A DNA stretch of 64,000 nt from Candidatus Uhrbacteria bacterium (GCA_943354605.1 CALRCK010000003.1:14902-78901), one strand, 5' to 3'. Shown: positions 7,404-47,940, numbered from the stretch's first letter. Made by a program: numbers and translations. The notes: generated by a model not told the origin, from the sequence alone.

Positions 7404-7811
7404 CTATGCTTCAATTTCATCTTCAACCGCAAGGCCGTCCTCGTCTCCGTCTTCCTCTTCCTCACTTGTGAATACATCGTCGCTCGTTCCTTCAATGCGT
7501 GCATCCATCATCTTTTCCTTCTTATCAATAAGCTGACGTTTCACGTCGTCTTTCGCCTCATCAATCGCTGCATACAAATCGTCGCGCTCCGAATGCGCAC
7601 GAACAACGTCGCCAAGCACCGCCACGTTGATCTCCGCAAAAAAGACATCGCCTTTATTGTGATGCTCGCTTGTTTTTCCTACTTCGATGGCGACGTCGCA
7701 TGGCTCAAAACGTTTTGCAAAACGAGAGACGCTCTCAACCTTTTCTGTGACATAGTTCCGAAGAGCATCCGTAAGATCGATGTTCGTTGCTTGGATTTCG
7801 GTGATACGCAT
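7404..7811 (-). CDS. hpf: ribosome hibernation promoting factor (HPF/RaiA/YfiA family)
   Basis: Start at MRITEIQATNIDLTDALRNYVTEKV (canonical HPF N-terminus); acidic C-terminal tail. Stop 3 nt from murC start. Confidence 0.85.
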   Translation of the reverse strand: MRITEIQATNIDLTDALRNYVTEKVESVSRFAKRFEPCDVAIEVGKTSEHHNKGDVFFAEINVAVLGDVVRAHSERDDLYAAIDEAKDDVKRQLIDKKEKMMDARIEGTSDDVFTSEEEEDGDEDGLAVEDEIEA

Positions 7812-14183: not shown

Positions 14184-16670
14184 TTACCGCGAATCAGCTG
14201 GTGCCGCAACCCGGCGACGTCGGTGCAAAACAATTGTTATTCTGCCATACAACCATCCTCCGTGGCGTTCCTGAATTTGGGCCTCAAGAACAACAGCGAA
14301 AGAATCCTTTCGGAATTCCACTCGTTGGAATGCGATGTTACGAATTTTTCCAGAACCGAATGTGGACCCAATCGACCCCAAGAGTTCCTGTTGAATTGCC
14401 GCATGACGTTCCCAAGAATCTTCGTCGACTTCCCCCTCGTCAACCCACCCATCAATACTGTCCTGAGGAATGCGCTGAGCGGCGCCGAAGAGAACAATAC
14501 TCAGTTTTTCTTGGGCTTCCTGAACAGGGATACTGATTTCTTTTGGCCAGGCCAGCTCCGGAATATCCCAATCGTACACCACCGGAATGTGGGCGTTATC
14601 AATATAAAGGCCCTCCTTTGCTCGCTCAAACGCTCGACGAGTCTCATGCAACCGCTTCTGATGAAATTGCAGCCGTTTTGTTCGTGCGGCACCAGGCTTC
14701 CCCACTGTCCGTGCATGCCGCACAACATCACGAAGTTCTGAATAGGCGTCGCGAGCTTCACGCAGCTCCTGATACTCCTTTCGAAATTGTTTTGGACATG
14801 GATACGGAATATGTTCTGTATATTCATCAAGAATCGATTCGTCAAAAAATTCCGTTCCGCAAGAAAGCATCGATTCCGTTGGCGGTGTAGGCATTGGAGA
14901 ACTTGACGTAGCATCTTGCGATTGCGGGATATTCACAAACGCATGAACAAACGAATCTCCATTTTTTCCATGACGAACATACCCGACAGACATCTGTATT
15001 CCACGAGCACTCGCGACAAGAGAAACATTCGGCTCAAAACCATACCGATTTTGGAGCACCGCTTTCACTGCATCCAGAAAACTCGTTGCAATGCGACGCC
15101 GATCGTCTTCGAAACCACGGGTGCCGTAATATTCACAAAGCACATCGATATCTCGTGAAGAAAACTCTCCAACCACGTCGAGCACATTACGTATCACGTT
15201 GTTCTCCTCAGAATATTCGTCAAGGGTTTCTATGTCGCGACACTCAATATTTGAAACGTAAGGAATGAAACGACCTTCTGGACGCAGTCTGCCATACGCA
15301 CGGCGAGCAGATGCAGCACCGCGGCGAAACGCCTGGCGCAACTCATGAATTTTTTTCGGCGCGTCATCTTCGCTCGTGTCGTCTTCTCCAGTAGACGATT
15401 CATTCGTTCCACGAAGCACGTCGTACATTTGCCCACACTTGGCATACACGTCCTCGTGAAGCGTGAAAAATGTTTGCAGGTCCTCTGCATATTTTTGAGG
15501 AACAACCCGAACGTTCAAAATGTCAACATCCAAAAGTTGCGTTTCGTCTTCCAACAAACTGTCCATGCGTTCATACAATCCACGAATTGCATTGATATGC
15601 ATGCTCATGGATTCCAACGGTACGTCAATCAAGGCGTACACCATGCGATCTTTCAAACGAGGATATTTTTCAATAAACGGGATACACGCAGCGAGCGCTA
15701 ACGAAATCTGAGATACGAGAAGGCGATCCGCGCCACTTTCTGAAGACTTCCCTTCAAAGAGATGTTCGTAAAGCTTCCCCTGCAATGTCGCATTCACGTC
15801 ACGAATTCTTCCTTCACGAAGATATGCAAGAACTTCGTCCTTGATGACTCGGCGACGTTTTTCTTGTTCAAGAATCGCCCTTCGCTCGTGCGCTGGAAGC
15901 CGAAGCATCGACGGACGAGGAGTCTCCATATCCGTCAAACTCACAAGGCCTTCATTAATCCAATGCTGAATTTCGTGAATCATGATTGCGTCGTTTTCAA
16001 CGTTCCCCTGCAACGCTCCACGACGCGTGACCAACGGAACTTGGCGATTCGCGATATTCACCATCTGGGCGCGATGGAATCGGCCACCGCTTCGTTCGTC
16101 TGGCGTTCGTTCGTTGTAAATATCGTTGTACGAATTTTCATCATTCACGGACATGAAAAGAAATCCGTGTACACGCGTCAGCTGGAGATCCTCGGCCCGT
16201 TGTACCTGTGCAAATCGATGAACCATGTCTTTATACAGTTCTTGCCCGAGATTTGCGGCAGACGGCCGAAGCCCCTGTCTTCGAACACTCTTCGTCAGTT
16301 CGTCCATAACGCTCCTTGCGTCTTCTGACTGTTGTCGAAATCGCTCAGCAACGACTCCGCACGCACGCAAAAAGTTCCGGTCCACTGTTCCAGCAGGAAG
16401 ATCAATGGACGACAACATGTCGCTCAAAGAAGGATTTTGCGGTCCAGAACGAAAATACGACTCCACGCGCAATGCCACATCGGCACGCTGAAGCCTACGC
16501 CATACCGCCTCGTCACGCCGACGCTCGGCACGTTTCTCTGGAGTCTCCACCGAGTTGCGAACAAGAAATTTCCCCGTATCAAGCGGAGTTTGCTCACGCG
16601 GCTCACCCTGCGGCTTTGCATCGTGATGCGTTGGCGCACCTTCTGGTATTTTTGGGCCTCCAAATGGCAT
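14184..16670 (-). CDS. large hypothetical protein with HExxH motif (IMIHEIQHW), embedded between uvrB and uvrA
   Basis: 828-aa ORF, highly charged, no TM segment. Starts 9 nt after uvrB stop and ends 23 nt before uvrA start on the same strand. Single zinc-metallopeptidase-like HEIQH motif near residue 232; rest has no recognisable domain. Confidence 0.6.
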
Positions 16671-22637: not shown

Positions 22638-22862
22638 TCAGAATTTCCGAAGAATCTTCTTTGCTTTTTCTACCGCGGTCGCAGGAACCATAATGGAAAA
22701 CTTCTGCGGCGTTCGTGCGGCAAACGGGTTCCAATGAAACGTGGAGTCCCCCGCCACTTCGGATGGAATACCCGCAACCATCAGCTTTGCGCACGCAATA
22801 TCCGCCCGAAACTCATCGTCCATTGTGGCCGCAACAACAAGAACTTTTCCGCGGAGATTCAT
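22638..22862 (-). CDS. small hypothetical protein (DUF2007-like?)
   Basis: Start placed at MNLRGKVLVVAA; about 74 aa; weak resemblance to small putative signal-transducing proteins. Confidence 0.3.
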   Translation of the reverse strand: MNLRGKVLVVAATMDDEFRADIACAKLMVAGIPSEVAGDSTFHWNPFAARTPQKFSIMVPATAVEKAKKILRKF

Positions 22863-22995
22863 ATAATCTGATTTTAACATGCTCGCTGACGCCAAAACAG
22901 GAACACATGAATTTTCGCTGACGGTTTACAGCAAGAACAACATTCTGTAGAATGAACGGGCTTTATATGGTTTCGACTGAATAGAGTAACCGGAT

Positions 22996-23025
22996 AGAAC
23001 CTTCTCCTCAAAACAGAAGGTTCTC
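22996..23025. other. perfect 10-bp stem hairpin AGAACCTTCT-N10-AGAAGGTTCT
   Basis: Located 25 nt upstream of ncRNA-like element A; the stem sequence resembles the closing helix of element B (GAGAACCTTCC). Confidence 0.4.
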
Positions 23026-23051
23026 TGTACGGCTTAATTCTGGTGACACTT

Positions 23052-23175
23052 TAGAACTTTCTCATTTTAGGCTAGTTTCGGCGCGCAAGGAGCAAAGTTC
23101 GCGAGGCGTACTCATGGTACGGCGAGCGAGTTTGCAACAAAGCAAGCCGAAAATAGTCAAAATGAGGAAGTTCTA
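23052..23175 (+). ncRNA. candidate structured RNA, copy A (family shared with 61031..61158)
   Basis: 124-nt element closed by a 17-bp helix TAGAACTTTCTCATTTT / AAAATGAGGAAGTTCTA. Conserved core blocks AGTTTCGGCGCGC, GGCGTACTCATGGTACGGCG and AGCAAGCCGAAAAT are shared with copy B. 5' TTTCGGC pairs with 3' GCCGAAA. Ends 8 nt upstream of tRNA-Trp. Strand inferred from co-orientation with the tRNA. Confidence 0.5.
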
Positions 23176-23183
23176 AGACATGA

Positions 23184-23257
23184 AGGGGCGTCGTATAATG
23201 GTAGTACAACGGTCTCCAAAACCGTTAGCGTGGGTTCGATTCCCCCCGCCCCTGCCA
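23184..23257 (+). tRNA. tRNA-Trp (anticodon CCA)
   Basis: Cloverleaf: acceptor AGGGGCG/CGCCCCT, anticodon arm ACGGT-CTCCAAA-ACCGT, T-loop TTCGATT, discriminator G, encoded CCA. One U-C mismatch in the T stem. Confidence 0.85.
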
Positions 23258-24751
23258 CGAGAGACGGTCATCGCAAGGTGACCGTTTTTCGATTGCAAAA
23301 TACGGTTGTTTCAGCGAAAAAATCGGCTCTCCGTCCGTAAGTTTCGAGTTCGATAGTAAAAACTGTGCCAATTCCCGTTTTTCGTCAGGAGTGGCTTCTT
23401 TCGCCAGTTTCTCGGCGTTTTCTGCGAGTTCCAAAATCCTACAGCCGAATTGGTAATAACTGATGTCAGCGCGGTTGTGTTTCGCCATGCGGACTTCAAG
23501 ACTTTCGAGCTGCTTGGTGTAGTCGGCAAACTTCGCATCGTAAAAGCTCTCGGTGATTTTCTTATCGAGGCGGTCTTCGTACAATGCGTCGATACGCTTC
23601 TTGAGGCGCGTCTGGTCAGCGACAAGGCTCTCGAAAGCCTTATCCTCCCCCTCGCGCTTCTGCGACAGCGACTGCTTGAGTGCGGCGGTTACAAACGCAA
23701 CGCCTGCATCGCTGATTTTCAGGATGTTCGTCAGCTTGTCGAAACGTTCGTCGATTGTTTCTTCTTTGACCCACGGCTGGTCGCAGTTCGTGTTGTACTT
23801 GGTGCAATGGTAGTAGTTGTAACGACCCTTCGCCTTCTCTGCGGTAATCGACCGAGCGCATACGCCGCAAGTAAACATTCCCTTGTACGCAAACGGCATG
23901 ACGTTATGCTCTTTGCGCATATTCAAATTGCGCCCGCTGATGACGTCTTGCACTTTTGCCCACAGCTCCGAGGCAATAAGAGGCTCGTATGAGCCTTGTA
24001 TCATCTTGCCGTTCCACTCAAACCTCCCAACGTAGAACGTATTGACGAGGCAACGCTGCACCGTGGAAACATACAGCTTACCGCTCTTGATGACGGGTGG
24101 GAGGTTGAGCGTCAGCCCTTCGGCTTCGAGCTTGGTAATAAGTGACTTCATCGAGTAAATGCCCGAGGCGTAGTACTCAAACATTTTGACGATGAGTTGG
24201 CGGTTCGCAGGGTCAGGAATGACGATGTTGTGTTTGGGGTTGAGCGGGTCTTTCGCGTTGAGGTAGCCAAGGGGAGCTTGGCGCGGATATTCTCCGTGCG
24301 AGATTTTGATGTCAAAACCCTTTTTTACTTCCTCCTTGAGGTTGTCGATAAAACCCTTCGCCAATACAGTCTTGAGGCCGTGCATGAGTTTGTCCGACGC
24401 GCGGCTGTCTTTTCCGATAGAGCCGCCCTCTTTCACCAGCCAAACGGTCACACCGAAATTGTCGGTCAGTTCTTCGATAGCGACGTAGTCCGTAAAGTTG
24501 CGATGGAGGCGGTCGGTCTTTTCGACGAGAATGTGCTTGATGTCCTTTGCTTTGACGTAGGCCAGCATCGCGGCGAACTCCTTGCGTCGGCTGTCCTTGG
24601 CCGTCTCTGCCTCCTCAAACTCTTTTGCGACCTCAAAGCCGTTACGACGAGCAAAGTCGTAGAGAGCAACGCGCTGTGCCTCGGGGGAGAAGCCCTGCTC
24701 GGCCTGCTCCTTGCTCGACACACGGACGTACATGACGGCTTTCTTGAGCAT
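23225..24751 (-). CDS. large serine recombinase (integrase)
   Basis: Start at MLKKAVMYVRVSSKEQ (resolvase/invertase catalytic serine motif). Recombinase domain, zinc ribbon CGVCARS...YYHC, long coiled coil. The last 11 codons (...GESNPR) overlap the 3' 33 nt of tRNA-Trp, as in tRNA-inserted integrative elements. Confidence 0.85.
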   Translation of the reverse strand: MLKKAVMYVRVSSKEQAEQGFSPEAQRVALYDFARRNGFEVAKEFEEAETAKDSRRKEFAAMLAYVKAKDIKHILVEKTDRLHRNFTDYVAIEELTDNFGVTVWLVKEGGSIGKDSRASDKLMHGLKTVLAKGFIDNLKEEVKKGFDIKISHGEYPRQAPLGYLNAKDPLNPKHNIVIPDPANRQLIVKMFEYYASGIYSMKSLITKLEAEGLTLNLPPVIKSGKLYVSTVQRCLVNTFYVGRFEWNGKMIQGSYEPLIASELWAKVQDVISGRNLNMRKEHNVMPFAYKGMFTCGVCARSITAEKAKGRYNYYHCTKYNTNCDQPWVKEETIDERFDKLTNILKISDAGVAFVTAALKQSLSQKREGEDKAFESLVADQTRLKKRIDALYEDRLDKKITESFYDAKFADYTKQLESLEVRMAKHNRADISYYQFGCRILELAENAEKLAKEATPDEKRELAQFLLSNSKLTDGEPIFSLKQPYFAIEKRSPCDDRLSWQGRGESNPR

Positions 24752-24753
24752 AT

Positions 24754-25377
24754 CTATAGATGAGAGACGGCAACCATCATTGAAATCGTCAGTACAGCTA
24801 TTCCGAACCCGAAGGTGAGAAAGCAAGCGTACTGCAAGAATGCCTTTACGCTTACGGCAAATGCATTTTTTCCGTCGAGCTCATCGCACAACTTTTTGTC
24901 ATTGGCCAAGTATTCAGCTTCTTGCGCGGCGTATGCTTCCTTGCTACCGCCTCCCGTGAGCACGACAGTAAGACCAGTACCGAGATACTGGATTTTTGCT
25001 TGGCGTAAACGCTGACGCTTCTTGAGCCATTCCGTAGCGGCAGTCCAGTAAATATGCCGAGCATTGAACCAACGAACAAATAGTCCGCTAATAAACGCGG
25101 TGAGCATCAATGACCAGGCTACAAACAATGTGTATTTCAAGGGATGACCAAGAAAAATTGCATCGAATGGCCTGCTCGTTGCGTTTGCTACTGAGCCAAC
25201 AAAGGTAAGGCTCAATGAAATAATCGCGGCGGAATACAAGGTAATCTTTTCCGAGACTTCCACGAGGTCTTTATTTACATTTATTTGCGTCAGGTCGAAA
25301 TGCGTTGCGGCCTTGCTCAATGCATCGCTACTTTGCGACATTTCCGCGTGAACAGCAGTCGGGTTGAAGTCCGTCAT
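24754..25377 (-). CDS. hypothetical membrane protein (element cargo)
   Basis: 207 aa with 3-4 hydrophobic helices; stop abuts the integrase start. Confidence 0.4.
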   Translation of the reverse strand: MTDFNPTAVHAEMSQSSDALSKAATHFDLTQINVNKDLVEVSEKITLYSAAIISLSLTFVGSVANATSRPFDAIFLGHPLKYTLFVAWSLMLTAFISGLFVRWFNARHIYWTAATEWLKKRQRLRQAKIQYLGTGLTVVLTGGGSKEAYAAQEAEYLANDKKLCDELDGKNAFAVSVKAFLQYACFLTFGFGIAVLTISMMVAVSHL

Positions 25378-25391
25378 AGATTGCTTTCATT

Positions 25392-26573
25392 TTATATTAT
25401 CTCCTCATCAATAGCGACCCCGAGTATCGCCTCGAGCTTCTTGGGGAGGACAGGACAGAAGGCTGCGAGTTTGCGCTGTAAGTACGGCACAATGCCGACA
25501 ACGTCCTTCTTTGCCTCGGCCTTCGCGAGGATGTTTTCGACCGCTTTTTTGTACCGTGTCACGGTTGCGGGTGAAGCTTCGCGTTTCAGCTCCTCAATAG
25601 CAGTCTTGAGGCCGTGGTCACGGACACGATGCGCGAGGTAGTAAAGAATAGCGCGGTCGCGGAAGTCGTCCGCATACTCCCCGATGAGGCGTTGTAGTTC
25701 GGTATTCTTGAGGTCGCTCAAACGAACAAGGCGGTTGAAGTCTTTGACGTACACGTTCTCGAACGTTCGTACGAGTACCTTCTTTGCTATGTCAGCCTTC
25801 GCTGCTTCTTGCAGGGTGTACCCCTTCTTTTTTATGGCGGCGGAAAATTGCCGCAAGGTCGCGTCTACGGTCTGTCTCTTTTGTAACGATAGCTCGATGC
25901 GGAGTGCGCCCTTTGTCCATTTGCCCGCCTTGTACTGCCGCGCAATTTCTTGTTCGAGCTGCGTCTTGCCATTGGTCGCGATTTCATCGAACTTGTCGTA
26001 CAAAACAAAACCTTGCGAGGAGTTGTAGTACTTCAAGTAAAAACCGTCCTTCCCGTCGTGATAATCGCGTCGGTTGAAGTCCGAAGACTGCTTCATGTCA
26101 TACGGCATCAGCGCACGGAGCATTTGTGCCGTCGTCCCGAAGCTCGGACTGATTTGCAGGATTTTCGAGTAGTCTATGCGGTACACGATAGCTCCCAACA
26201 CATCCTCGGGCTTTACGCCGACTTTGATTTCTTTGAGTGCATCGACGAGCTTCTTGGCGACGAGGGGGAGCAAACGTTCGTCCATATCGAAGATGCTTGC
26301 CCCGAACAGGAGTTTGGGGAGTGATACTTGCACGACGAGCTGACGCTCCGAAGGCACCATGCCGCGTTTGGTGCGCCGTGAACGTTCGGTAATATGTACC
26401 TGTGGGAAATACTTCCCCTCGGCCTTGCAACGCTGTGGGTAGTCCGTGTAGCGCGTGGTGAAGCGTCCGAAGACGCCGTACTTGCCTTTGAGCTCCTGAT
26501 GCTGCGCCTTGGTGAAGAACTCGTCGGAGTACGTCACGAAGTTCGTAATGTGAATGGTGACGCTGTCTATCAT
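25392..26573 (-). CDS. putative replication initiation protein (Rep_trans-like)
   Basis: 393 aa; the FVLYDKFDEI (YDK) motif and overall size fit rolling-circle Rep_trans initiators of phage and integrative elements. Assignment from motif memory only. Confidence 0.4.
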   Translation of the reverse strand: MIDSVTIHITNFVTYSDEFFTKAQHQELKGKYGVFGRFTTRYTDYPQRCKAEGKYFPQVHITERSRRTKRGMVPSERQLVVQVSLPKLLFGASIFDMDERLLPLVAKKLVDALKEIKVGVKPEDVLGAIVYRIDYSKILQISPSFGTTAQMLRALMPYDMKQSSDFNRRDYHDGKDGFYLKYYNSSQGFVLYDKFDEIATNGKTQLEQEIARQYKAGKWTKGALRIELSLQKRQTVDATLRQFSAAIKKKGYTLQEAAKADIAKKVLVRTFENVYVKDFNRLVRLSDLKNTELQRLIGEYADDFRDRAILYYLAHRVRDHGLKTAIEELKREASPATVTRYKKAVENILAKAEAKKDVVGIVPYLQRKLAAFCPVLPKKLEAILGVAIDEEII

Positions 26574-26740
26574 ACGAGTTGGGGCTTGGCTTTTATGCGG
26601 GTGTCGATGCGGAGCAATACCTCAAAGGCTCCGAGCAGATTTCTTGCTGCGTCGGGTATTTCTTCAGGGGCGAGGCCAAGCTCGTCCACGAAGTAGCGTT
26701 GCGCCAATTCTTCGAGGTTGGGTTCATCTTCGGGCAACAT
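26570..26740 (-). CDS. small hypothetical protein translationally coupled to the Rep-like gene
   Basis: 56-codon ORF (MLPEDEPNLEELAQRYFVDELGL...) whose TGA overlaps the Rep ATG (ATGA). Absent from the track because it is under 60 aa. Confidence 0.3.
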   Translation of the reverse strand: MLPEDEPNLEELAQRYFVDELGLAPEEIPDAARNLLGAFEVLLRIDTRIKAKPQLV

Positions 26741-26803
26741 AAAAGCTCCGAGCCGTAATATCAGCCGTGACAGGCTGTATAGACGCGGAGCTGTGGGTTG
26801 ATT

Positions 26804-26832
26804 ATTGAACGCACGACAAGTTCGTTCTATAA
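26804..26832 (+). promoter_or_regulatory. near-consensus sigma-70 type promoter TTGAAC-17-TATAAT
   Basis: TTGAAC at 26804..26809, 17-bp spacer, TATAAT at 26827..26832. Points rightward into a hairpin plus T-tract at about 26877..26912, suggesting a very short transcript or an antisense RNA against the ImmA gene 3' end. Confidence 0.4.
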
Positions 26833-26900
26833 TGCCCGTGGGTAGTAGCTTTCGCGTTTACGCAGCTATTATTGATAAGCCGTCTGTTTGCGCAGGCGGT

Positions 26901-27539
26901 TTATTGTTTTTGTAGGCTGTAGTCAGATACGCAGATTTCCATCATTTTCACAGATACCGCGAACTCAGTTGCGAGGCTACGGATCACCCATCGGTCATCG
27001 TGTTCGATAGCACGGGCGTATGCGCGTTTCAGTACTGGGTACGGAGCGAGGTAGTACGATGCGGTGATTTCCGCAACGCGCTCAATGATGTTCTGTCGCT
27101 CGACGGGGTCGGCTATGGCTTCCATGTCGGCCATGAACTCCCCATCAAACCGCTGAAGGATATGGGCGAACTCATGAGCGATGGTGAAGCGTTGACGTTC
27201 GCGTGGTACATCGTTTGCGACAAAAATGCGGATAGTACCCTCGTCCACGATGTCGTACATTCCGTCGATGTTCAGGCCGTGCTCGGTGGGGTTGAACGGA
27301 TAGTACTCAAACAAGAAGCCGTTGAGATACTGTGACATGGGTGCGAAGTTGATGGGGACACTCACCGTGTCGGCGTTCATGAATACCTTGTGCACGATGT
27401 CACGGAAGTGATGTTTCCACTTCTTTACCTTCTCCATGTAGAGCGGGCTGCATTGTCCATATCGTGGTCGCTGACGTGTCTTTTTGCGTAATACATACGC
27501 GCACGTTTCATCGGGAAGCTCGGGAGTAGTCGGGTTCAT
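26901..27539 (-). CDS. ImmA/IrrE family zinc metallopeptidase
   Basis: 212 aa with FTIAHEFAHIL, the HEXXH motif in the COG2856/DUF955 (ImmA/IrrE) context. Confidence 0.75.
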   Translation of the reverse strand: MNPTTPELPDETCAYVLRKKTRQRPRYGQCSPLYMEKVKKWKHHFRDIVHKVFMNADTVSVPINFAPMSQYLNGFLFEYYPFNPTEHGLNIDGMYDIVDEGTIRIFVANDVPRERQRFTIAHEFAHILQRFDGEFMADMEAIADPVERQNIIERVAEITASYYLAPYPVLKRAYARAIEHDDRWVIRSLATEFAVSVKMMEICVSDYSLQKQ

Positions 27540-27545
27540 ACGTTT

Positions 27546-28409
27546 TTACTCCAAGGCTTTGGGTTCCTCGGGCTTCGGGATGAAGTTATCAGGGGTAATA
27601 ACCGACTTTCCTGTGACGTCTTCGATTTCTTTTCGGGCATTGCCTGCGATACTCGCGCCCTTTTGTGCAGCCGCATGATTTGCATCAAATCCGTTCGCAT
27701 CGGCGTTTCGTGCGATTTCCGCAGTACTTGCCTCTGCAAGCATATTGATAACGAGCTCAAGCGGTGACATATGGTCACGCAGGTTTTCATCCGTCAGGTT
27801 CTTGAACTCTTTGTACTGACGGGTTGTCTTACCTGACCAACCTTTGTAAATGTCGTTCGTGAGGATTGCGTAGCCGTAGCCTTCGATGCCACGTTTTCGC
27901 CATTCGTTCGTGAGCTCGTTGCGCACTTCAATCGTGCGGAGACGACGACTAATCCATTCGTCGTCATAGCCTTTGCGGGCGTATGTGCCAAGGGCACGAT
28001 GAATGCCTTTTTCAGGGTCTTTGATTTCCTCGATACGCTCGAAGCCGACCCGCGCAAGCCATTGCTTGATGGGCTCTGCCTTGGGCGATGGGACGCTCTG
28101 AATGACACGGAGCAGGGTCTCCGTATCGGTACACTCGGTCGAGCGTTTTTTGCCATCCTTCGCGGTGAACTTCAACTTTACGATTTTCTCGTAAAGTTCA
28201 AATCCCTCCTCTTTGAGCTTGGCTTTGAGGTCGTTCCAGTAGCGGCTCGGAACGCTGCTTTCGGTGATGATGCCAACAACGTCGATGACGCTGAAGTACC
28301 ATTTCTCGGCTTCGGGGTTCCAGCGGCGACGAACGTCCCTATCCTCAAAGCGAATAATGGAAAGGTCGTTATCTGACGCTTGCGGTGGCTGGGTAGTAGT
28401 GTCGGCCAT
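27546..28409 (-). CDS. Bro-N / DinD-like (DNA-damage-inducible protein D family) protein
   Basis: Start at MADTTTQPP...; N-terminal LSIIRFEDRDVRRRWNPEAEKWYFSVIDVV resembles the Bro-N domain, and the overall layout resembles DinD. The ATG is 2 nt downstream of the XRE gene stop. Confidence 0.5.
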   Translation of the reverse strand: MADTTTQPPQASDNDLSIIRFEDRDVRRRWNPEAEKWYFSVIDVVGIITESSVPSRYWNDLKAKLKEEGFELYEKIVKLKFTAKDGKKRSTECTDTETLLRVIQSVPSPKAEPIKQWLARVGFERIEEIKDPEKGIHRALGTYARKGYDDEWISRRLRTIEVRNELTNEWRKRGIEGYGYAILTNDIYKGWSGKTTRQYKEFKNLTDENLRDHMSPLELVINMLAEASTAEIARNADANGFDANHAAAQKGASIAGNARKEIEDVTGKSVITPDNFIPKPEEPKALE

Positions 28410-28410
28410 A

Positions 28411-28758
28411 CTATTTCTTGGTCTTGCGCTTGCTCTCCAAATAATTGACGTGACCAACGATTTCGTTGATTTCGTCAGGGGAGAAGCTGCGCTGACGCAA
28501 TGCGTTTGCGAGCATCTGCGTAGCGTTCGGTGTTGAATTATCATCGAGAAGGCCAACAGCGGCGAGGAAGTCCCTGAATGTCATTCCAAGCCCTTCTGCA
28601 AGCTGTTTGCTCTTGTCGATGGAGAGTGTCTTGTAGAGCCCTGCCTCAAGTTTCGATATAAACCCAACGGAAATGTCTGCGCGACGTGCAAGCTCGTTTT
28701 GTGACAAGCTGTTTTGCTCGCGTAGTTCTTTGAGACTCTTGTGAAGTGGTTTCGTCAT
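28411..28758 (-). CDS. XRE-family helix-turn-helix transcriptional regulator
   Basis: HTH LSQNELARRADISVGFISKLEAG. Together with the downstream ImmA protease it forms a classic ImmR/ImmA-like switch. Confidence 0.75.
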   Translation of the reverse strand: MTKPLHKSLKELREQNSLSQNELARRADISVGFISKLEAGLYKTLSIDKSKQLAEGLGMTFRDFLAAVGLLDDNSTPNATQMLANALRQRSFSPDEINEIVGHVNYLESKRKTKK

Positions 28759-28979
28759 AAAATACATTCATTCGTTTACGTCTCGACCCTGCGTTTTGCT
28801 ACATACGCGTCGATGATAAGAGTTACCGATGCATATTGTACTCTTTGCTATTTCCTATAGTCAATAGCACTATGCGATTTGTGTTGATACAAAGCTTTCT
28901 TGAATACAAAGAGCGCACCGACGGGCTGCGCTCGATGCAACGATTGAACGTTGAGAGCGTAGCCGCGCCGATGCGCGAG

Positions 28980-29666
28980 TTACGGGGTAGCGGGAGCCAC
29001 GGGCTCGAGGGTCTCGATGCGTTCGACGAGCATCATGAGATCCTCCACGTTCATGGGGAACGGGCAGTTGCGCGTCTTCATCCGCTCGATGATCCAGCGC
29101 ATCCCGGGGACGAGCTCGGTAAGCTTACGGAGCTCTTCGTCCGGCACATGCCCGAGGCGGGTAATTCCGTACGTGTTCTCATGCGGCCAGTCCAACTGGA
29201 TCAGGTAGACCTGGGCGGCCATGAGCTCCTGCCGCCAAGTGGCCAGGTGACCAGTCGTGACGGGGGACGTGTTCAGCATCCGCTGCGTGAGCTCGTTGGC
29301 CCACCCCTGGCCGGAGTAGCGTGCGGCCCACCACATGGCCTGGAGCCACGCCAACTGGAAGACCAGGCACTGCGCATCGTGCTCGCTGTGATCCTCCGGG
29401 TTGTAGTAACGCAACTGGAAGATCATCTCGCGCTGCCGATCGAGGAGGGCCTCGTGGCATTGCGCCTGGAACGTCTCCTGCTTATCGAAGAGACGCTTGG
29501 CCTCCCCCTGGGAGTTCTCGAACTTCGTCTCCGAGTCCTTGAGCTTGGTCTCGGAGCTCTCGAGCTGCATCGTGAGGCTCTTGATGCGGCCGATCATGTA
29601 GTAGATCACGATCAAGCTGACGATGACGACCAAAATGAGGCCGCCGATGATGGTCTCGGTTTCCAT
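28980..29666 (-). CDS. hypothetical membrane-anchored protein encoded in a GC-rich patch
   Basis: 228 aa with an N-terminal TM helix (IIGGLILVVIVSLIVIYYMI). Local GC is far above the window average. The fully open antisense ORF 28836..29699 is L/R-rich and rejected. Confidence 0.45.
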   Translation of the reverse strand: METETIIGGLILVVIVSLIVIYYMIGRIKSLTMQLESSETKLKDSETKFENSQGEAKRLFDKQETFQAQCHEALLDRQREMIFQLRYYNPEDHSEHDAQCLVFQLAWLQAMWWAARYSGQGWANELTQRMLNTSPVTTGHLATWRQELMAAQVYLIQLDWPHENTYGITRLGHVPDEELRKLTELVPGMRWIIERMKTRNCPFPMNVEDLMMLVERIETLEPVAPATP

Positions 29667-30132
29667 TACACACTCCTTCGGGACGCACCCGATGAATGAG
29701 GGGACGCACCCCTACTGCACTCCGCAACTCAAGCACATTCTTGAGCGCAGATCTCGGAGGGGCCACTCGTGCGCCCTTCAAAATCCATGCTCAAAATAAC
29801 ACTCATATTAGCATAAAAAATCACTATTGTCAACCGAAAACCCGACAAAAGCCTTTTATATTGGCCAAATCAAACTACCGCGTCGGGGCGGCTGCAGCGT
29901 CTTTCCACCCAAGCACCCGTACCGCAACCTGCGGAAATACGCACATATCCTGATACAACGCCGCCCAGTCAAAAGTTCCGAACTCATCCGCCAGCTCCTG
30001 CCAATAGCCGGTTTGGTGCTGGCAACCGGATTCCCATAGGACTCTCGACGGGTTCCTATGACCGGAGTCCCAGCCAAACCCGCTGTTAAAAACCCGTCAC
30101 CATGTGTGGCGGTTTTTTAACAGAAATGACTT

Positions 30133-30603
30133 ATGAACATCGAAACCGTAAGAAAACAGGTGGACGATATTGAGAATAAATTTCAACGGATGAAATCGAT
30201 CTCTGTAATAGACCCGATGATGCTCAGTGGGGACGCAGGAGGTGTGGCGCCTCAGTACTCCGGGAGAGAAAATATGTCTGAAATTGATGCGTCTAGGAAT
30301 GCCGAGCTCCATTCGCTTTGGAGTGAGATCGAAAGAAACCTACCGCCAGGTTTTTCGATAGATGGAAATTTACTTCGACATCTCTCTTTTAATGAAATTC
30401 GCGACTGGGATGATATTTCGAATTTGGATATTCCGAGGGAGCTCCAAAAGGTCAATGAGTATCGAAAAAAGTTGATACTCGTTGTATTTAGGAACGATGA
30501 ATTATTCAACAATCGAAATCGCGTCCGCAAACGCACGACGAACTTTAGGACGAACCGCTGCAGGATCCTCGCCGCGATATCCGAGAGCGAGCATAACAGT
30601 TGA
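30133..30603 (+). CDS. hypothetical protein
   Basis: 156-aa ORF; its 3' end overlaps the convergent nitroreductase gene, so the true extent is uncertain. Confidence 0.3.
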   Translation: MNIETVRKQVDDIENKFQRMKSISVIDPMMLSGDAGGVAPQYSGRENMSEIDASRNAELHSLWSEIERNLPPGFSIDGNLLRHLSFNEIRDWDDISNLDIPRELQKVNEYRKKLILVVFRNDELFNNRNRVRKRTTNFRTNRCRILAAISESEHNS

Positions 30604-31134
30604 CGTGAGATTCTGCGACGGCAAATCGAGAATCGCATCAACTTCAACGGGATTGAATCCGCCCATTGGACCAGAATCCACACCAAGCTGCGCCGCGGTC
30701 GTCACCATAACACCAAGTGGGATGTACACCTGACCCATCACCCATGCATCGAGACTAGCATCGGTCTGTCCGGCAATGAATCCGTCCACCATGTTCTTCA
30801 GCCCCTCGAGCATAGAAGGATCAACACTTTGCGCTTTTACGGTTCGATCCACCAACTCTGGCGTCATTGCGGATCGTGCGTCAGTGCGACGAGCAATAAC
30901 GATGAGATGCGATGCGTCGGTGACTTTTGGCTGATCGTAGCTTGCTGCACGAAGCTTTACGCGGATCTCTGGATTCTTAACCACGATAAACTTCCATGGC
31001 TCGATGCCAAACGAGCTCGGCGCCAAACGACCGCTTTCAAGAATGATTTGCACATCCTCATCACTCACCTTCTTTGCTGGATCAAATACCCGCACCGCGT
31101 ACCGCCAGTTCAATGCCTTGATGATGTCGTTCAT
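30502..31134 (-). CDS. NAD(P)H nitroreductase family protein
   Basis: Start at MNDIIKALNWRYAVRVF (typical nitroreductase N-terminus); FMN-binding fold motifs (RLAPSSFGIEPWKFIVV). Confidence 0.75.
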   Translation of the reverse strand: MNDIIKALNWRYAVRVFDPAKKVSDEDVQIILESGRLAPSSFGIEPWKFIVVKNPEIRVKLRAASYDQPKVTDASHLIVIARRTDARSAMTPELVDRTVKAQSVDPSMLEGLKNMVDGFIAGQTDASLDAWVMGQVYIPLGVMVTTAAQLGVDSGPMGGFNPVEVDAILDLPSQNLTSTVMLALGYRGEDPAAVRPKVRRAFADAISIVE

Positions 31135-31213
31135 AGAATGCGATTGTACAGAATATTCCCAGAAAAATAAACGACCCCTGGTTTTACGCCGGGGGCCGTT
31201 TATTATGATTTGT

Positions 31214-32422
31214 TTACCAACGACCAGGGCCGTTTGGATTGTAGCCGTTCGCAATTTCGAGGCCATCGTTGTAGCCATCGTTGTCGGAATCGGCGTCGAA
31301 ACGATTGGTCCAATGGATAGTCATTTCGGCGTAATCGGTAAGACCATCGCCGTCGGAGTCCAACTTGCCGACGCCATTCGGATCATAGCCATTCACGACT
31401 TCAGTGTAGTCTGAATATCCATCGCCGTCAGTATCGGAACTCAATGGGTTGGAGTACCACACAGACTCTTCATCCGCGTTCGTCAATCCGTCGCCATCAG
31501 TGTCCATGGCTGAAACGGCATTGCCGAGATTCTCTACCGCAGCTTCGTCATCATCGGACATATGATAGTCCTTGATATCCGTTGCGTTGGTTGGCAGAAC
31601 GATATTCGTTGGCTGATTGAAACTCTTGAAGAGCACCGAAATGCCAACGGTGGTGTACGACGTTGCGCTCTGTTGCACATGTACATTGAACGTAAACATT
31701 GCAGGGAGCATGTCGGCTGTATCGATCCAGAACGAACCATCAATCGTGACATGCTCTGCGAGATACGTACGTGCGGCATCTGCATCAGACGACGCGATCA
31801 TCTTTTTCTCCACGAGATAATCGACAAGATTGTCGGTATCAATGGTGTACGCATAACGCACCGCAGGCTTCTTGTTGATGAAGTCTACCGTTTCGTACTG
31901 ATACGTCACGATACCGCGATCAAACATGTCCTGAAGCGCAGACTGCATTTCCGCGATTCCCTCTTCAGTATCGGAAGCGGTTGGAAGCTCCGTTGAACCG
32001 GAACGTTTTGCGAAGTACCACGTGTTCCCGTCTTGGGAGAGATACACAGTGTCCTTTGCAAGAATCAACGACGCGTTGCCTTTGTTAAAGGCACCGTTCT
32101 GATCCGTCATCCATGCAGCAACGTCGAAGCGGCTATTTTCCGTTTCACTCGAAACACCATTAAGATCCAAATGAACCTTCACTGGCTGATTCATGCTCGA
32201 CGCATACGTTTCCACATCAACATCAACGCTAAAATCTACCGATGTTGCATTGGCAACATTCGTGAGAATTTCCGTAGACGAATCACTCAATTGGGATGTA
32301 CTCCCAAGACCCGCAAGAAGATCATCCGCGTTCAAAGAAGTAGCTGCCTGCGCGAACGACGCCGGCAATAACACCACACTCAAAACAGCGATGGAAACGA
32401 GCTTTTTGATAAGGTTTTTCAT
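31214..32422 (-). CDS. secreted protein with thrombospondin type-3-like calcium-binding repeats
   Basis: Start at MKNLIKKLVSIAVLSVVLLPASFAQA (signal peptide). The C-terminus carries repeated D-x-D-x-D-G motifs (DTDGDGLTNADE, DTDGDGYSDYTE, DSDGDGLTDYAE, DSDNDGYNDGLE). Confidence 0.6.
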   Translation of the reverse strand: MKNLIKKLVSIAVLSVVLLPASFAQAATSLNADDLLAGLGSTSQLSDSSTEILTNVANATSVDFSVDVDVETYASSMNQPVKVHLDLNGVSSETENSRFDVAAWMTDQNGAFNKGNASLILAKDTVYLSQDGNTWYFAKRSGSTELPTASDTEEGIAEMQSALQDMFDRGIVTYQYETVDFINKKPAVRYAYTIDTDNLVDYLVEKKMIASSDADAARTYLAEHVTIDGSFWIDTADMLPAMFTFNVHVQQSATSYTTVGISVLFKSFNQPTNIVLPTNATDIKDYHMSDDDEAAVENLGNAVSAMDTDGDGLTNADEESVWYSNPLSSDTDGDGYSDYTEVVNGYDPNGVGKLDSDGDGLTDYAEMTIHWTNRFDADSDNDGYNDGLEIANGYNPNGPGRW

Positions 32423-32868
32423 GGGAATTGGCCAATAAATTAACCACGCAGTATAGCAAAAAAATTGCCAAAAGTCAAGGAATTTGGCTAAGATAAGAGG
32501 CAAAATTGACTGAATCGGACCTGAATCTTTGAGGGTTGTGTGGACGTGTGGAAGGGAGCACGGGATATCGCGGCAAGGAACGATACCCTCGTTTTTTGGG
32601 GTTTTAAAACTGGGCAACGGCACGCGATCTGAGCCAGAAATCGATGAAAAGTGAAATCGATTTCGGAAATGCACGACCAGCGATCGTAGACGGCGCTATC
32701 GCCAACCTCGCAGATCACGAGAATCGCCCACCGTTTCCTTAATGCAAACGAGTTGCGTTAGCAAAATACCCTATTTGAAATCGAATACCCCCAGGCTCAC
32801 CGTTGGTGTGTCGCTGGTGCCATTCCATTCCCAACCCACTCAAAGGATCAGTCTCCCTCAATCCAAGA

Positions 32869-33870
32869 TCAGTTCAGATCCTCCAATAATTTCATCAGCC
32901 CAACTTCATGCACGTGAAGTAGTGGGTATTTCTTTCGCAGTGTTTCACGCGGCGCATGCCAGGTGAGTTTGCCTTTGGCGTACAACGAAAGCACGTCGGG
33001 ATGAATGTAAGATTTTTTACACACCGCAACGGTGTTGCCGAGTGCATCGGCGGCGCGCTGAACTGCGGCTTTGATGTCGTGCTGAACGTCGCGCTTCGTC
33101 GTTGCGACCGGCCGATCCCAAAGATACGACACCGCAATCACCGTGCCGTGCCACGTACGAAAATCTTTTGCGGTAATTTCTTCCTTTGAAATCAATTTCA
33201 AATAGTCGTTCACGTCCTCAGACTTCACATCGTGTGGCTTACCGTCGTGATCGAAGTATTCAAACAGCTTCTGGCCAGGAATGTCGTGACACGTTGCGAC
33301 AATCTTTCGCAATCGTTCGTCTTCAATGGGAAATTCATGTGCAATGCCGTCTTTGCCGTCGAACGCCAACTCCATATGCTCCCCCGCTCCTTTCACGTGT
33401 CGATTTCGGAGCGTAGTGAGCCCGAACGAGTGATTGTCTTGAGCGTATTCCTCGTTGCCGATGCGAATAAACGCCGTATCAAGTAATCGGACAATCGCTG
33501 CAAGCACTTTTTCTTTTGGCATTCCACGCAAACGGAGATCGGCCTCAACACGCCGACGAATACGAGGAAGCGATGCAACAAATTCACGCATGCGATGAAA
33601 CTTCCCTTCGTTCTGTTTTGCGATCCAGTCGGGATGATAGATATACTGCTTTCGATGTCGCGCGTCGAGCGCCGTTGCCTGAATGTGGCCATTCGCAAAC
33701 GGACAGATCCACACATTCGTGTACGCCGGAGGAATGCCCAATGAACGAATCCGATCGAGAATCTTGCGATCACGAATTCTCTTTCCGTTCTGGTCGCGAA
33801 ATACCACGCCAAACCAACCCTTTGCTCGGGTAAAACCGGGAATGTCGTCAGTGACGTATCGGAGTCGCAT
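32869..33870 (-). CDS. DNA topoisomerase IB (poxvirus-type TopIB)
   Basis: 333 aa; bacterial TopIB layout with the C-terminal catalytic region SYIHP (active-site Tyr), comparable to Deinococcus and vaccinia TopIB. Confidence 0.75.
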   Translation of the reverse strand: MRLRYVTDDIPGFTRAKGWFGVVFRDQNGKRIRDRKILDRIRSLGIPPAYTNVWICPFANGHIQATALDARHRKQYIYHPDWIAKQNEGKFHRMREFVASLPRIRRRVEADLRLRGMPKEKVLAAIVRLLDTAFIRIGNEEYAQDNHSFGLTTLRNRHVKGAGEHMELAFDGKDGIAHEFPIEDERLRKIVATCHDIPGQKLFEYFDHDGKPHDVKSEDVNDYLKLISKEEITAKDFRTWHGTVIAVSYLWDRPVATTKRDVQHDIKAAVQRAADALGNTVAVCKKSYIHPDVLSLYAKGKLTWHAPRETLRKKYPLLHVHEVGLMKLLEDLN

Positions 33871-33910
33871 GGCCGTAGTATAGCAAGCACTGTTGTGCTA
33901 TATTTTTGGC

Positions 33911-34636
33911 ATGAAAAATCCTCAACGCATTCTCTTAAAACTCTCAGGCGAGCAGTTTGCAGGGGCGCAAAAGTTTGGCATTGATACCGACTTTATTCTT
34001 GGCCTGGCCGAGGAACTTTACGAAGTCGTCAAAGCGACCAGTGCGCAGATTGTCATTGTGGTTGGTGGAGGAAACTTTGTTCGCGGGGCCACACTTTCGA
34101 AAAACGAAGTCATGATCGAACGCGCAACAGCGGACTACATGGGTATGCTTGCGACGATTATGAACGGCATGGCGCTCGTGGATATTCTGGAACACTTTGG
34201 TCAGCCAGCTCGTTTACAGACGCGAATCAAAATCGACAGTGTCGCCGAACCGTTCATTCGCCGCCGTGCAATTCGGCATTTAGAAAAAGGCCGCATCGTC
34301 ATTATTGGTGGAGGCACCGGGAATCCGTACGTCACCACCGACACCGCCGCAGTCTCTACCGCGCTCGAACTTGGATGCGACATCGTGCTTAAGGCAACAA
34401 AGGTAGACGGCGTATATTCCAAGGACCCGACCAAACATACCGATGCGGTAAAGCTTCAGTCCATTTCGCACCTCGATGCTATTCGCGACGAAAATATTTC
34501 CGTCATGGACAACGCTGCCGTGAGCCTCGCGATGGACAACAACCTGCCAATCCGCGTATTCGATCTGCTCACCAAAGGAAACATCCAACGCATCGTGAAC
34601 GGGGAAAGCATTGGAACACTCGTCAGTAAGAGCTAA
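33911..34636 (+). CDS. pyrH: UMP kinase
   Basis: Start at MKNPQRILLKLSGE; amino-acid kinase fold with VVGGGNFVRG motif. Confidence 0.9.
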   Translation: MKNPQRILLKLSGEQFAGAQKFGIDTDFILGLAEELYEVVKATSAQIVIVVGGGNFVRGATLSKNEVMIERATADYMGMLATIMNGMALVDILEHFGQPARLQTRIKIDSVAEPFIRRRAIRHLEKGRIVIIGGGTGNPYVTTDTAAVSTALELGCDIVLKATKVDGVYSKDPTKHTDAVKLQSISHLDAIRDENISVMDNAAVSLAMDNNLPIRVFDLLTKGNIQRIVNGESIGTLVSKS

Positions 34637-35869: not shown

Positions 35870-36108
35870 ACAAAACCGACAGTATCCGAAAACACTTCTT
35901 GACACAAGAAAACCTTCATGAGATCTTCGTAGAGTATGAACATGCAGTCCGCACGCTTGAGCGAAAAGAAGTCCAAGGGAAATTCCCTTGGCGCTTAACG
36001 TTGCACACTGCACGAGAAAGCGATCAAGGGAAACCTTGGTCGCTTTTTTGTTTGTACAAGAGTTCAGCACTCAGTGTCTCATCACTCACTGTTCGAGGGT
36101 CTCAGTAC

Positions 36109-36759
36109 ATGGAAGACGCCAAGATTCACGGCCTCCTCTCTGTGGTTGCGCAGGCAACCGCTTCATCTCACATCATCGTGAGCGGCACCACGATGGCACC
36201 GCTTCTCCCCAAGACCGCCGATGAGCTCTTCGCCTTCTGGCAACAAGGACTCTCTGCGATCGCTGTCCGTAACGGGCAAATCGTCGGTCATGCGGCCGTG
36301 GAGCCGCTCACGGAAGACTGGTTCGAACTCGGCGCTGTGTGGGTGCATCCCGATGTTCGAGGCCAAACCCTTGAGCGCAACGGATCGCACCCGCATGTGG
36401 GACTCCGCCTGTACCAGGCCATCCTGGAACGCCATCGCGAGAAGAACATTCTTGCTACCACCATCAACGCCGCGGCAATGGTGGTGGGCTGGCGCGTGGG
36501 CATGGTACCGATTGGCTACGATCAGCTCCCCCGACACGTATGGGAGGCGACGTGCTGCTGCCCGAGCCAGAAAACAGGAGTGTCTCGTAAGCAGAACGTG
36601 CCGCACTGCGGCATGCGTCAACAGACGTGCTTCGTGCGCGTCACTCGGGAAACATGGAATCGGCTAGACCGACCGGAACCGTGTGCTCTGCCGGTTCGCG
36701 CGCCGACCACCCTTGCCATCATCCCCCACGACGACATCGTCATCCTCCTCGCAGGATGA
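36109..36759 (+). CDS. GNAT-family N-acetyltransferase (GC-rich, start uncertain)
   Basis: IVGHAAVEPLTEDWFELGAVWVHPDVRGQ and LRLYQAIL fit GNAT motifs A and B. Composition switches to high GC at about 36110; track ORF starts at 35899, and alternative starts are 36109 and 36193. Confidence 0.45.
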   Translation: MEDAKIHGLLSVVAQATASSHIIVSGTTMAPLLPKTADELFAFWQQGLSAIAVRNGQIVGHAAVEPLTEDWFELGAVWVHPDVRGQTLERNGSHPHVGLRLYQAILERHREKNILATTINAAAMVVGWRVGMVPIGYDQLPRHVWEATCCCPSQKTGVSRKQNVPHCGMRQQTCFVRVTRETWNRLDRPEPCALPVRAPTTLAIIPHDDIVILLAG

Positions 36760-36895
36760 CCACGATCGGCTGCACCTTCGGGTGCGGCCGATTCGCTTTT
36801 TTTCAAACTCCAACTCTATCTATTCTCCAGCTTTACTGCTATGGTGCAACCTCAGATATGGTAGCCTGCTTTATGGCTCCAAAACGACCACTCGT

Positions 36896-37018
36896 ATGAC
36901 CGACGGCGAAGAAGTGACCACCACAACCGTTCCTCCAGTAGAGCCAGTTACAGCTCCAGAAACAGAGACAGGGGCTCCAGCAGAACCAGCTCCTGTATCA
37001 GAAGAAACCGTCGCGTAG
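36896..37018 (+). CDS. small acidic Pro/Thr/Glu-rich peptide (40 aa)
   Basis: MTDGEEVTTTTVPPVEPVTAPETETGAPAEPAPVSEETVA followed by a hairpin terminator. Confidence 0.25.
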   Translation: MTDGEEVTTTTVPPVEPVTAPETETGAPAEPAPVSEETVA

Positions 37019-47794: not shown

Positions 47795-47919
47795 GTGGGA
47801 CGAACCTATTTGGCCAATTTTGGGCTTGCAGCATCGAAAACTTTTTCAACGTACTGTGAAGTACGTCTCAAAAGCTTTTCTCGCCACGCACCCAAACTTG
47901 ACGCAAATAGCTTCGTCCC
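47795..47919 (-). ncRNA. structured spacer RNA candidate in the tRNA cluster, with tRNA-like acceptor stem and 3' ACCA but no cloverleaf
   Basis: Minus-strand sequence begins GGGACGA and ends TCGTCCCACCA (7-bp acceptor-like helix plus CCA). Inner stacked helices CTATTTG/CAAATAG, TTTGGG/CCCAAA, perfect hairpin ACGTACT-TCAC-AGTACGT and palindrome AAAAGCTTTT. Not a canonical tRNA. Confidence 0.3.
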
Positions 47920-47940
47920 ACAGTCACGCTCAATTTTTCA

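Follow-up and report, generated by a model that had tools for sequence, protein, structure and literature searches.

The window analyzed here is a 64,000-nt stretch of a Candidatus Uhrbacteria bacterium genome (GCA_943354605.1, CALRCK010000003.1:14902-78901), in which the gene for a large serine recombinase (LSR) runs antisense into the 3' end of a tRNA-Trp gene. An original prediction, made from the sequence alone, had read 23184..33880 as a mobile element integrated at this tRNA by the recombinase. Integration by the LSR at tRNA-Trp is supported; the element is bounded differently, and its attachment site, attP, appears to lie inside the recombinase gene. The features that carry this reading are, in window coordinates:

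23184..23257, plus strand: host tRNA-Trp(cca), intact, CCA encoded (ARAGORN; Rfam tRNA, 62 bits)
23251..23257: attL core CCTGCCA, the final 7 nt of tRNA-Trp (attL/attR comparison)
23225..24751, minus strand: LSR, integrated-state form, 508 aa (Pfam Resolvase, Recombinase, Zn_ribbon_recom)
23258..23291, plus strand: terminator-like hairpin with U-run, CGAGAGACGGTCATC-GCAA-GGTGACCGTTTTTCG, directly after CCA; predicted P' arm of attP (folding)
29875..30003, minus strand: the LSR gene's detached 3' portion, 42 codons and a stop; predicted P arm of attP (conserved 99-nt block, frame continuity)
29997..30003: attR core CCTGCCA
30004..30123, plus strand: host DNA originally 3' of the tRNA, not part of the element (copies diverge right after the core; fold and terminator scan)

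The predicted overlap between tRNA-Trp and the recombinase open reading frame (ORF) was borne out by ARAGORN, Rfam and Pfam and spans 33 nt. Read from the ATG at 24751, the ORF comprises 1527 nt including the stop and encodes 508 aa, not the 509 aa first given. The tRNA 3' end reads ...CCGCCCCTGCCA. Reverse-complementing ...GCGTGGGTTCGATTCCCCCCGCCCCTGCCA, which covers the T-arm, the acceptor strand and CCA, gives the last LSR codons, ...SWQGRGESNPR*; the W codon, TGG, comes from CCA, and ESNP from the T-arm. The element-encoded part of the protein reaches ...DDRLSWQ (23258..24751 plus the core), and the terminal GRGESNPR* is host tRNA read antisense.

The recombinase matches Resolvase (PF00239, E 8e-24), Recombinase (PF07508) and the Zn ribbon PF13408. 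A search for relatives returned 1,315, of which the best 120 were listed and the 22 closest (55–100% identity) aligned. Among these 22, residues R10, S12 and S13 of the YVRVSS motif and C295, C298, C316 and C323 are invariant, the three motif residues being nearly so in 67 wider homologues. The AlphaFold2 (AF2) model of the homologue P0029 contains two long helices (344-391 and 397-448) that correspond to the LSR coiled coil, and the best matches in phage and plasmid collections are ≤34% identical. Most of the 22 closest LSRs end ...KRSPCDDRLSWQGRxESNP[RE]. Across the best 120 homologues, at least 75 have a recognizable tRNA-antisense tail (e.g. WQGR.ESNPR, WRGRRDSNPRP or WLPGPDSNQRPSG), 19 stop at or just past the W, some possibly by truncation at contig ends, and six have a longer tail of another kind, marked by the motif D-[DE]-F-[GR]-T-[FLM]-[DN]-W. 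Distant LSRs (~37–40% identity) overlap other tRNAs, namely tRNA-Gln on a 4-Mb contig and tRNA-Asn in GCA_030433215.1. Because tRNA-antisense tails recur across the family, with other tRNAs included, the overlap is not the accident of ORF calling that had been considered.

The 3' end of tRNA-Trp is also occupied elsewhere by remote LSRs, in L092 (25–29% identity; tRNA at 7689..7762, minus strand) and in L091/L099 (52%), and these, too, run into the tRNA and provide a U-run hairpin. Across these genomes the site is a hot spot used by several LSR lineages. At two further loci (L089 and L098) it looks empty, yet a 160-aa LSR fragment, 75% identical to P0030, lies ~3 kb downstream and may be the remnant of an old integration.

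Element boundaries from independent copies

The element occupies 23258..30003 (6,746 bp), with attL at 23257/23258 and attR at 30003/30004. Four further integrated copies at tRNA-Trp have the LSR, Rep, M78, Bro and XRE genes (described below) in common, plus a 99-nt block. Three of the related copies lie beside tRNA-Trp in L083 (GCA_964815925.1), L081 and L082, and L083 has the same left flank as the window (NAGPA, PdaC). BLASTN of the window against these three returned the recombinase, the block from Rep to XRE and, in isolation, the 99-nt block, 29905..30003, at 95% identity in L083. Every copy of this block closes with ...GTCAAAAGTTCCGAACTC[A/G]TCCGCCAGC[T/C]CCTGCCA, and divergence starts directly after it. 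The other three elements measure 9,145, 6,287 and 7,416 bp. A fifth copy in the same host lineage, L095, is decayed, with only the last 85 recombinase codons left and the attR block retained, which argues that elements at the tRNA-Trp site turn over.

The identity shared by attL and attR is CCTGCCA, 7 nt (10 nt in L081), in line with the few shared bases expected of LSR attachment sites. attR was located solely by comparison with other copies: scanning the window for another occurrence of the tRNA 3' end (28 nt, ≤3 mismatches) gave none, and a repeat scan of 22800..34200 was also uninformative. The earlier remark that there is no clean direct repeat at attR thus holds for long repeats, while the 7-nt core and the 99-nt block do define the site. 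They move the right boundary from 33880 to 30003, and the element is about one third shorter than proposed. The suggestion that it rebuilds the tRNA 3' end, as in a classic island carrying a tRNA 3' half, falls with the same comparison, as the T-arm under the ORF is host DNA and the sites are identical over only those last 7–10 nt.

A tRNA-Trp pattern retrieved 15 metagenomic loci, 14 of them without this element and nine without any LSR, so that both empty and occupied sites were seen in other lineages. The closest reference genome, L001 (93% aa identity), is labeled Candidatus Uhrbacteria; it lacks synteny here, and its contig stops 4.6 kb upstream. We read 23258..30003 as an intact, plasmid-like, 6.75-kb integrative rolling-circle episome of a host from the Patescibacteria (candidate phyla radiation, CPR), with a probability of about 0.8. 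Independent copies, circular forms and codon-level selection make its boundaries, the position of attP within a gene, the exchange of protein tails described below and the intact tRNA highly likely.

attP within the recombinase gene

When 30003 is joined to 23258, the recombinase frame runs 41 codons further, giving 540 aa that end ...DDRLSWQ-ELADEFGTFDWAALYQDMCVFPQVAVRVLGWKDAAAAPTR. The detached block reads WQELADEFGTFDWAALYQDMCVFPQVAVRVLGWKDAAAAPTR, with its first two codons (WQ) drawn from the shared core and the other 40 forming the extension. Its frame is open in all four full-length integrated copies, and of the 119 differences seen among copies, third, first and second codon positions hold 78, 24 and 17, respectively; between the window and L083 all changes (5/5) are synonymous, whereas in the other two frames they would be mostly non-synonymous. 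The same tail is present, uninterrupted, in the database LSRs P0029 (...STWYALLDDFRTFDWQAAYHDLTPFPSVAVRVLGWTA), P0041, P0047, P0069 and P0094. Two long-tailed LSR genes lie on contigs with 30-nt terminal overlaps, i.e. circles (L084, 10,665 bp; L086, 8,432 bp), which hold the same gene set in an order that is a circular permutation of the integrated form, with no tRNA. The open frame, the codon-position bias, the long-tailed database LSRs and the circular contigs together argue that the 540-aa joined frame is a real gene. As read from these alignments, attP lies inside the LSR gene, and integration would swap a conserved ~40-aa tail for eight tRNA-antisense residues.

The predicted attP junction is ...GAACTCATCCGCCAGCTCCTGCCACGAGAGACGGTCATCG... 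(longer form ...CAAAAGTTCCGAACTCATCCGCCAGCTCCTGCCACGAGAGACGGTCATCGCAAGG...) and the predicted attB junction ...CCCCCCGCCCCTGCCAATAGCCGGTTTGG... (longer form ...GGTTCGATTCCCCCCGCCCCTGCCAATAGCCGGTTTGGTGC...). After WQ, the integrated tail varies with the host tRNA-Trp (GRGESNPR, GRRESDPR, GRRGSNPE) while the element's own arm is constant, so the element carries no copy of the tRNA T-arm and would re-supply at most the last 7–10 nt of the tRNA.

The detached tail is conserved both as protein and as DNA. LSRs as little as 45–50% identical still have its D-[DE]-F-[GR]-T-[FLM]-[DN]-W motif, despite synonymous DNA changes, and the P arm is near-invariant over its first ~36 nt, synonymous sites included. 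The AF2 model of P0029, with a mean predicted local distance difference test (pLDDT) of 86, has the domains typical of an LSR; a linker of low confidence lies at the core, and the tail follows as three short helices. A profile of the tail matched 15 of 1.84 billion representatives, mostly small orphan ORFs on the attR side; such matches are few because cluster representatives are mostly integrated forms. A word-indexed search with the reconstructed tail returned five short ORFs.

An orphan tail block was seen in a different setting. In a related population that is widespread, represented by L105 (10001..10390) and L106 (P0121; at least 20 contigs, some of 0.2–1 Mb), the left flank of the window (genes for PdaC, NAGPA and proteins of 193 and 85 aa) is directly joined to the core and LSR-tail block, which is inverted and in fusion with an ORF upstream of it. 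The vicinity has no tRNA-Trp, LSR, Rep or XRE gene, a second CCTGCCA lies 32 nt off, and all differences from the window's tail are synonymous. The arrangement looks like a rearrangement associated with the attachment site.

At the other end of the element, the hairpin at 23258..23291 lies opposite the LSR codons for ...EKRSPCDDRLS and folds with dG of about -24 to -26 kcal/mol (z about -6 to -7). Hairpins equivalent to it are present at all sites tested, whether occupied, empty or in a circular form. They occupy the same place with unrelated sequence in L091 (52%-identical LSR), L092 (25–29%, tRNA-Trp) and the long-tail contigs L084, L085 and L086, and seven of the nine LSR-free metagenomic loci were folded, with a strong U-run hairpin beginning ≤2 bases past CCA. 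One stem G-C pair has become A-T between copies through two synonymous, compensatory changes. The element likely supplies a terminator for a tRNA cut off from its own, and as the P' arm of attP the hairpin may mimic the terminator half of attB. A single DNA stretch would then be coding densely, in antisense overlap, as protein tail, attachment-site arm and tRNA terminator. Beyond attR, 30004..30123 contains a weak hairpin (30008..30029) and a strong bidirectional terminator (30083..30123). Palindromes near 29700..30120 had been taken as a possible sign of a nested or decayed element; those at 30083..30123 fall outside it and resemble a host terminator.

Proposed cycle, rival readings and known systems

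In the cycle suggested by these comparisons, the LSR would recombine attP with an attB made of the last bases of tRNA-Trp and the tRNA terminator, with a crossover within the CCTGCCA core that leaves the tRNA intact. Integration would sever the last 41 LSR codons and leave them at the far end, in attR; the integrated gene would run into the host tRNA antisense and end after eight host-encoded residues, and excision would restore the 540-aa LSR. The element hairpin after CCA would presumably replace the host terminator, displaced to attR. The conserved tail may be needed for, or tune, attP x attB recombination, and the truncated integrated form may differ so as to stabilize integration or bias its direction. 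That the tail swap is a true switch of directionality or state is a tentative reading, on the weaker side of possible. A stricter version is doubtful: only the excised circle would encode the 540-aa, attP x attB-competent enzyme, and the truncated form would either be excision-prone without a recombination directionality factor (RDF) or be inactive and locked. Just as doubtful is its joint extension, in which such switch logic is common to a large undescribed LSR clade with the tRNA CCA end and terminator as attB.

The swap may instead lack regulatory meaning, both forms of the enzyme acting alike or the integrated one being of no consequence, and attP overlapping the gene through compactness and the need to resemble a tRNA end and terminator; this deserves serious weight, though short of an even chance. 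The host-encoded tail is variable and of arbitrary length (GRGESNPR, GRRGSNPE, read-through ...RQRFWKPSSYH) and so has no conserved function, and the near-invariance of the P arm even at synonymous sites implies a constraint on the attachment site at the DNA level. The exchange of int 3' ends in rumA-targeting streptococcal integrative and conjugative elements (ICEs) likewise has no known function (PMC4701971). What this account leaves out is that purifying selection on the protein reaches ~100 nt from the core, past a typical LSR half-site, that the tail motif persists over such divergence, and that the tail is predicted as short helices and not as disorder; according to a passage of PMC6070905, an analogous swap alters enzyme behavior in the tyrosine integrase of Mx8.

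Several points weigh against reading the locus as an excisable episome with a meaningful tail swap. Neither pyrH-anchored reference genomes nor the 15 metagenomic tRNA-Trp loci yielded an empty site from the same host lineage, and excision of this particular copy is predicted from its joined ends. The dyad symmetry of the reconstructed attP and attB, scored to place the crossover, is weak, and AF2 confidence for the tail is moderate (pLDDT 68–80). No conjugation, mobilization or virion gene is recognizable in the element, and no RDF was identified in this copy. Any functional effect of the swap is purely what we infer, and in L105 and L106 an inverted tail block stands next to that left flank where no tRNA is present.

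A close precedent comes from rumA-targeting ICEs of streptococci, each with a single serine integrase, in which integration exchanges the 3' parts of int and alters the C-terminus (Ambroset et al. 2016, PMC4701971). Both enzymes are LSRs (Resolvase, Recombinase and Zn ribbon domains) whose C-terminus is altered on integration. The ICEs, however, have a protein-coding target whose product is altered, are large, conjugative and from Firmicutes, and carry LSRs only distantly related to the one described here; the present element takes the last 7 nt of a tRNA, leaves it intact, and is a 6–10 kb rolling-circle episome of CPR hosts. In phage Mx8, attP lies within the integrase gene (IntP/IntX), and the recombinant int, with a new 3' end, is active with altered behavior, as stated in a passage of PMC6070905 that cites Tojo 1996 and Magrini 1999. 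That enzyme belongs to the tyrosine recombinases and comes from a tailed phage of 49 kb, in contrast to the serine recombinase of the small plasmid-like element described here. The Mx8 attB sites are at tRNA-Asp genes.

Large DNA segments are inserted mainly with serine integrases, which normally take their direction from an RDF, a protein of its own; that the C-terminus of an LSR, present in the excised state only, contributes to directionality is a testable idea. The LSR clade described here targets a universally conserved tRNA end, a class of site thought to belong almost entirely to tyrosine integrases. The computational TIGER survey (Mageeney et al. 2020, PMC7192596) placed 14 of 297 serine-integrase islands at t(m)RNA genes, a use that in its words 'has not been reported previously' and for which it asked for proof. 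It gave no mechanism, whereas here a coherent LSR clade is accompanied by attachment sites, circular forms and the overlap of gene and attP. Our literature search, made in a limited library and therefore no proof of novelty, found no description of this LSR clade or of such CPR elements; element and LSR combine already-known features in a new form. The defined attachment sites could serve genetics in CPR/Patescibacteria, for which there are almost no tools today.

Right flank and gene content

To the right of attR, the window contains the following:

30502..31278: nitroreductase, outside the element (Pfam; NfsB-like, below the NCBIfam cut-off)
31214..32674: protein with four TSP3_bac repeats, outside the element (Pfam)
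32869..33870: type IB topoisomerase (TopIB), Topoisom_I and Top1B_N_bact, outside the element (Pfam)
33893..34636: AA_kinase/pyrH gene (Pfam)

Pfam confirmed the domains predicted for the nitroreductase, the TSP3 protein and TopIB. Their description as cargo did not survive: together with a 156-aa ORF they fill 30133..33870, beyond attR, and are absent from the circles and from every other copy, so nothing in the comparison appears to mark them as cargo of the element. Nor is the TopIB 'poxvirus-type', since it carries the bacterial N-terminal domain Top1B_N_bact. It is improbable that the island extends over ~10.7 kb (23184..33880) with these genes as cargo, perhaps nested or decayed and with an attR unrecognizable near pyrH. 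The right flank does differ among relatives, L083 and L095 having small ORFs and an ABC transporter unlike the window, so that 30004..33880 could be an older, unrelated insertion, and pyrH synteny also differs in L001. However, five independent copies have the precise attR at 30003 in common, the circular forms lack all of these genes, no second recombinase, repeat of the tRNA end or compositional step follows 30003 (GC 0.45–0.52, like the flanks), and the N-terminal domain is that of an ordinary bacterial TopIB. A nitroreductase had been tried as a flank marker common to the window and L081 and was rejected, the two proteins having no detectable similarity. Synteny between the window and its relatives L083 and L095 extends >10 kb to the left of tRNA-Trp and breaks exactly at the integration site.

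Within the 6.75-kb element, all genes are on the minus strand. From attR, the order is the detached LSR tail, with a terminator-like site at its stop, the 228-aa gene, XRE, Bro-N, M78, the intergenic region, the 56-aa ORF, Rep, the membrane protein and the LSR:

28980..29666, minus strand: 228-aa GC-rich gene, N-terminal transmembrane (TM) segment and coiled coil, variable cargo slot (promoter-like site 29833..29805)
28411..28767, minus strand: XRE-family HTH repressor, CapH/ImmR-like, first of the co-directional string from XRE to LSR (HTH_3, E 8e-13)
27546..28409, minus strand: Bro-N protein (Pfam; PADLOC PDC-S13, phrog_15286)
26901..27539, minus strand: ImmA/IrrE-type metalloprotease, Peptidase_M78, CapP-like (Pfam, E 1e-11; HEFAH present)
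26741..26900, minus strand: intergenic region conserved family-wide (alignment; terminator-like site 26873..26906)
26570..26740, minus strand: 56-aa ORF, ATGA stop/start overlap with Rep
25392..26573, minus strand: rolling-circle-type initiator Rep, 393 aa, Phage_CRI/G2P N-terminal domain (PF05144, phrog_702)
24754..25377, minus strand: 207-aa membrane protein, variable cargo slot between Rep and LSR (no family match)

Rep matches PF05144 with E 3e-7 (30.7 bits, cut-off 21.7). It had been called Rep_trans-like, and Rep_trans (PF02486) gave no match even at E ≤10, leaving Phage_CRI as the sole Pfam match. The YDK motif is present as predicted and invariant in seven copies, and its Y192 is the putative catalytic residue. 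Among solved structures, the phage collection, PLSDB and IMG/VR viral contigs, Rep has no relative. The ATGA overlap with the 56-aa ORF was also found as described, and five of the six other copies have a small ORF of 50–56 aa just 5' of Rep (L081, L083, L084, L086 and the window's own contig L102). Upstream, 26741..26900 combines a hairpin after the M78 gene with the conserved blocks TATAG, CAAT and CCACAGCTCCGCG, and is a candidate promoter and double-strand origin. A Rep of this Phage_CRI type probably replicates the excised circle.

That the locus is a cryptic prophage of filamentous (inovirus-like) kind, or such a prophage's satellite, is still less probable than the larger island: Phage_CRI is the family of Ff-type phage replication proteins, the two TM proteins (24754..25377 and 28980..29666) could be coat or assembly proteins, and the inovirus phiRSM integrates into a tRNA gene via a (small) serine recombinase, but none of the seven copies has a Zot/pI-type morphogenesis ATPase or recognizable coat gene, the membrane proteins occupy variable cargo slots and lack conservation from copy to copy, and Rep lacks viral relatives. 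With no transfer or virion genes besides, the element appears to be a plasmid-like integrative episome and not a prophage. Actinomycete elements of the pSAM2, SLP1 and pMEA300 type (~11–17 kb) similarly exist integrated in tRNA genes or as free circles (PMC2440964). They differ in having a tyrosine integrase, longer attP/attB identity, Xis and FtsK-like transfer, none of which the present element shows. pSAM2 replicates by a rolling-circle Rep.

Pfam likewise confirmed the domains of the predicted module of XRE repressor, HEFAH protease and Bro-N protein, whose XRE gene is preceded by a promoter-like site at 28864..28835. PADLOC scores the XRE protein as capH (E 1e-8) and the M78 protein as capP (E 2e-13), and XRE and an M78 protease with HExxH belong to one module, as in ImmR/ImmA (CapH/CapP) switches. 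The Bro-N protein matches over its full length the phage-defense candidate PDC-S13 (E 4e-118) and phrog_15286 (E 2e-104); its similarity to DinD is weak. The likeness to ImmR/ImmA of ICEBs1, and to CapH/CapP of the cyclic-oligonucleotide-based anti-phage signaling system (CBASS), extends to the XRE and M78 pair and its place upstream of the replication and recombination genes. It ends where the Bro-N/PDC-S13 gene intervenes and the genes are co-directional instead of divergent. By analogy, the XRE repressor and M78 protease, with Bro-N/PDC-S13 between them, probably gate expression of Rep and the LSR. The position of the Bro-N gene varies by copy, between XRE and M78 in the window and after Rep in L081 and L084.

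Two slots hold variable cargo. The GC-rich gene at 28980..29666 is as GC-rich as had been noted (0.60–0.63), and other copies hold different genes in its place. The membrane protein listed as cargo in the original prediction, 207 aa, does lie inside the element, and in relatives the slot between Rep and LSR holds methyltransferases and GmrSD/HNH, DUF4268 and HTH_17 genes. These elements form a compact class of replicating, integrating CPR episomes that shuttle restriction-modification and candidate defense genes. The HTH_17 gene (58–70 aa, an excisionase-like MerR type) stands between Rep and the cargo or LSR in L082, L083, L084, L085 and L086, and in four of these five relatives it directly precedes a DNA methyltransferase. 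We do not propose it as an excisionase-like RDF, as it is absent from the window copy and L081 and usually precedes a methyltransferase.

Two further observations concern the window outside the element. A GC-rich stretch at 36000..36999 reaches 0.57–0.62, against ~0.50 around it. Just 5' of tRNA-Trp lies a long hairpin of ~125 nt (23045..23183, plus strand). A paralogue at 47795..47925 (minus strand) is flanked by tRNA-Thr(tgt) and tRNA-Tyr, and the related genome L001 has a homologue (15075..15210) upstream of an HU-like gene. RNAalifold on the three sequences gave 53 pairs, 18 with compensatory changes, and no Rfam family matched; the hairpin may represent a structured RNA not yet described, or else a palindromic repeat element of this CPR lineage.

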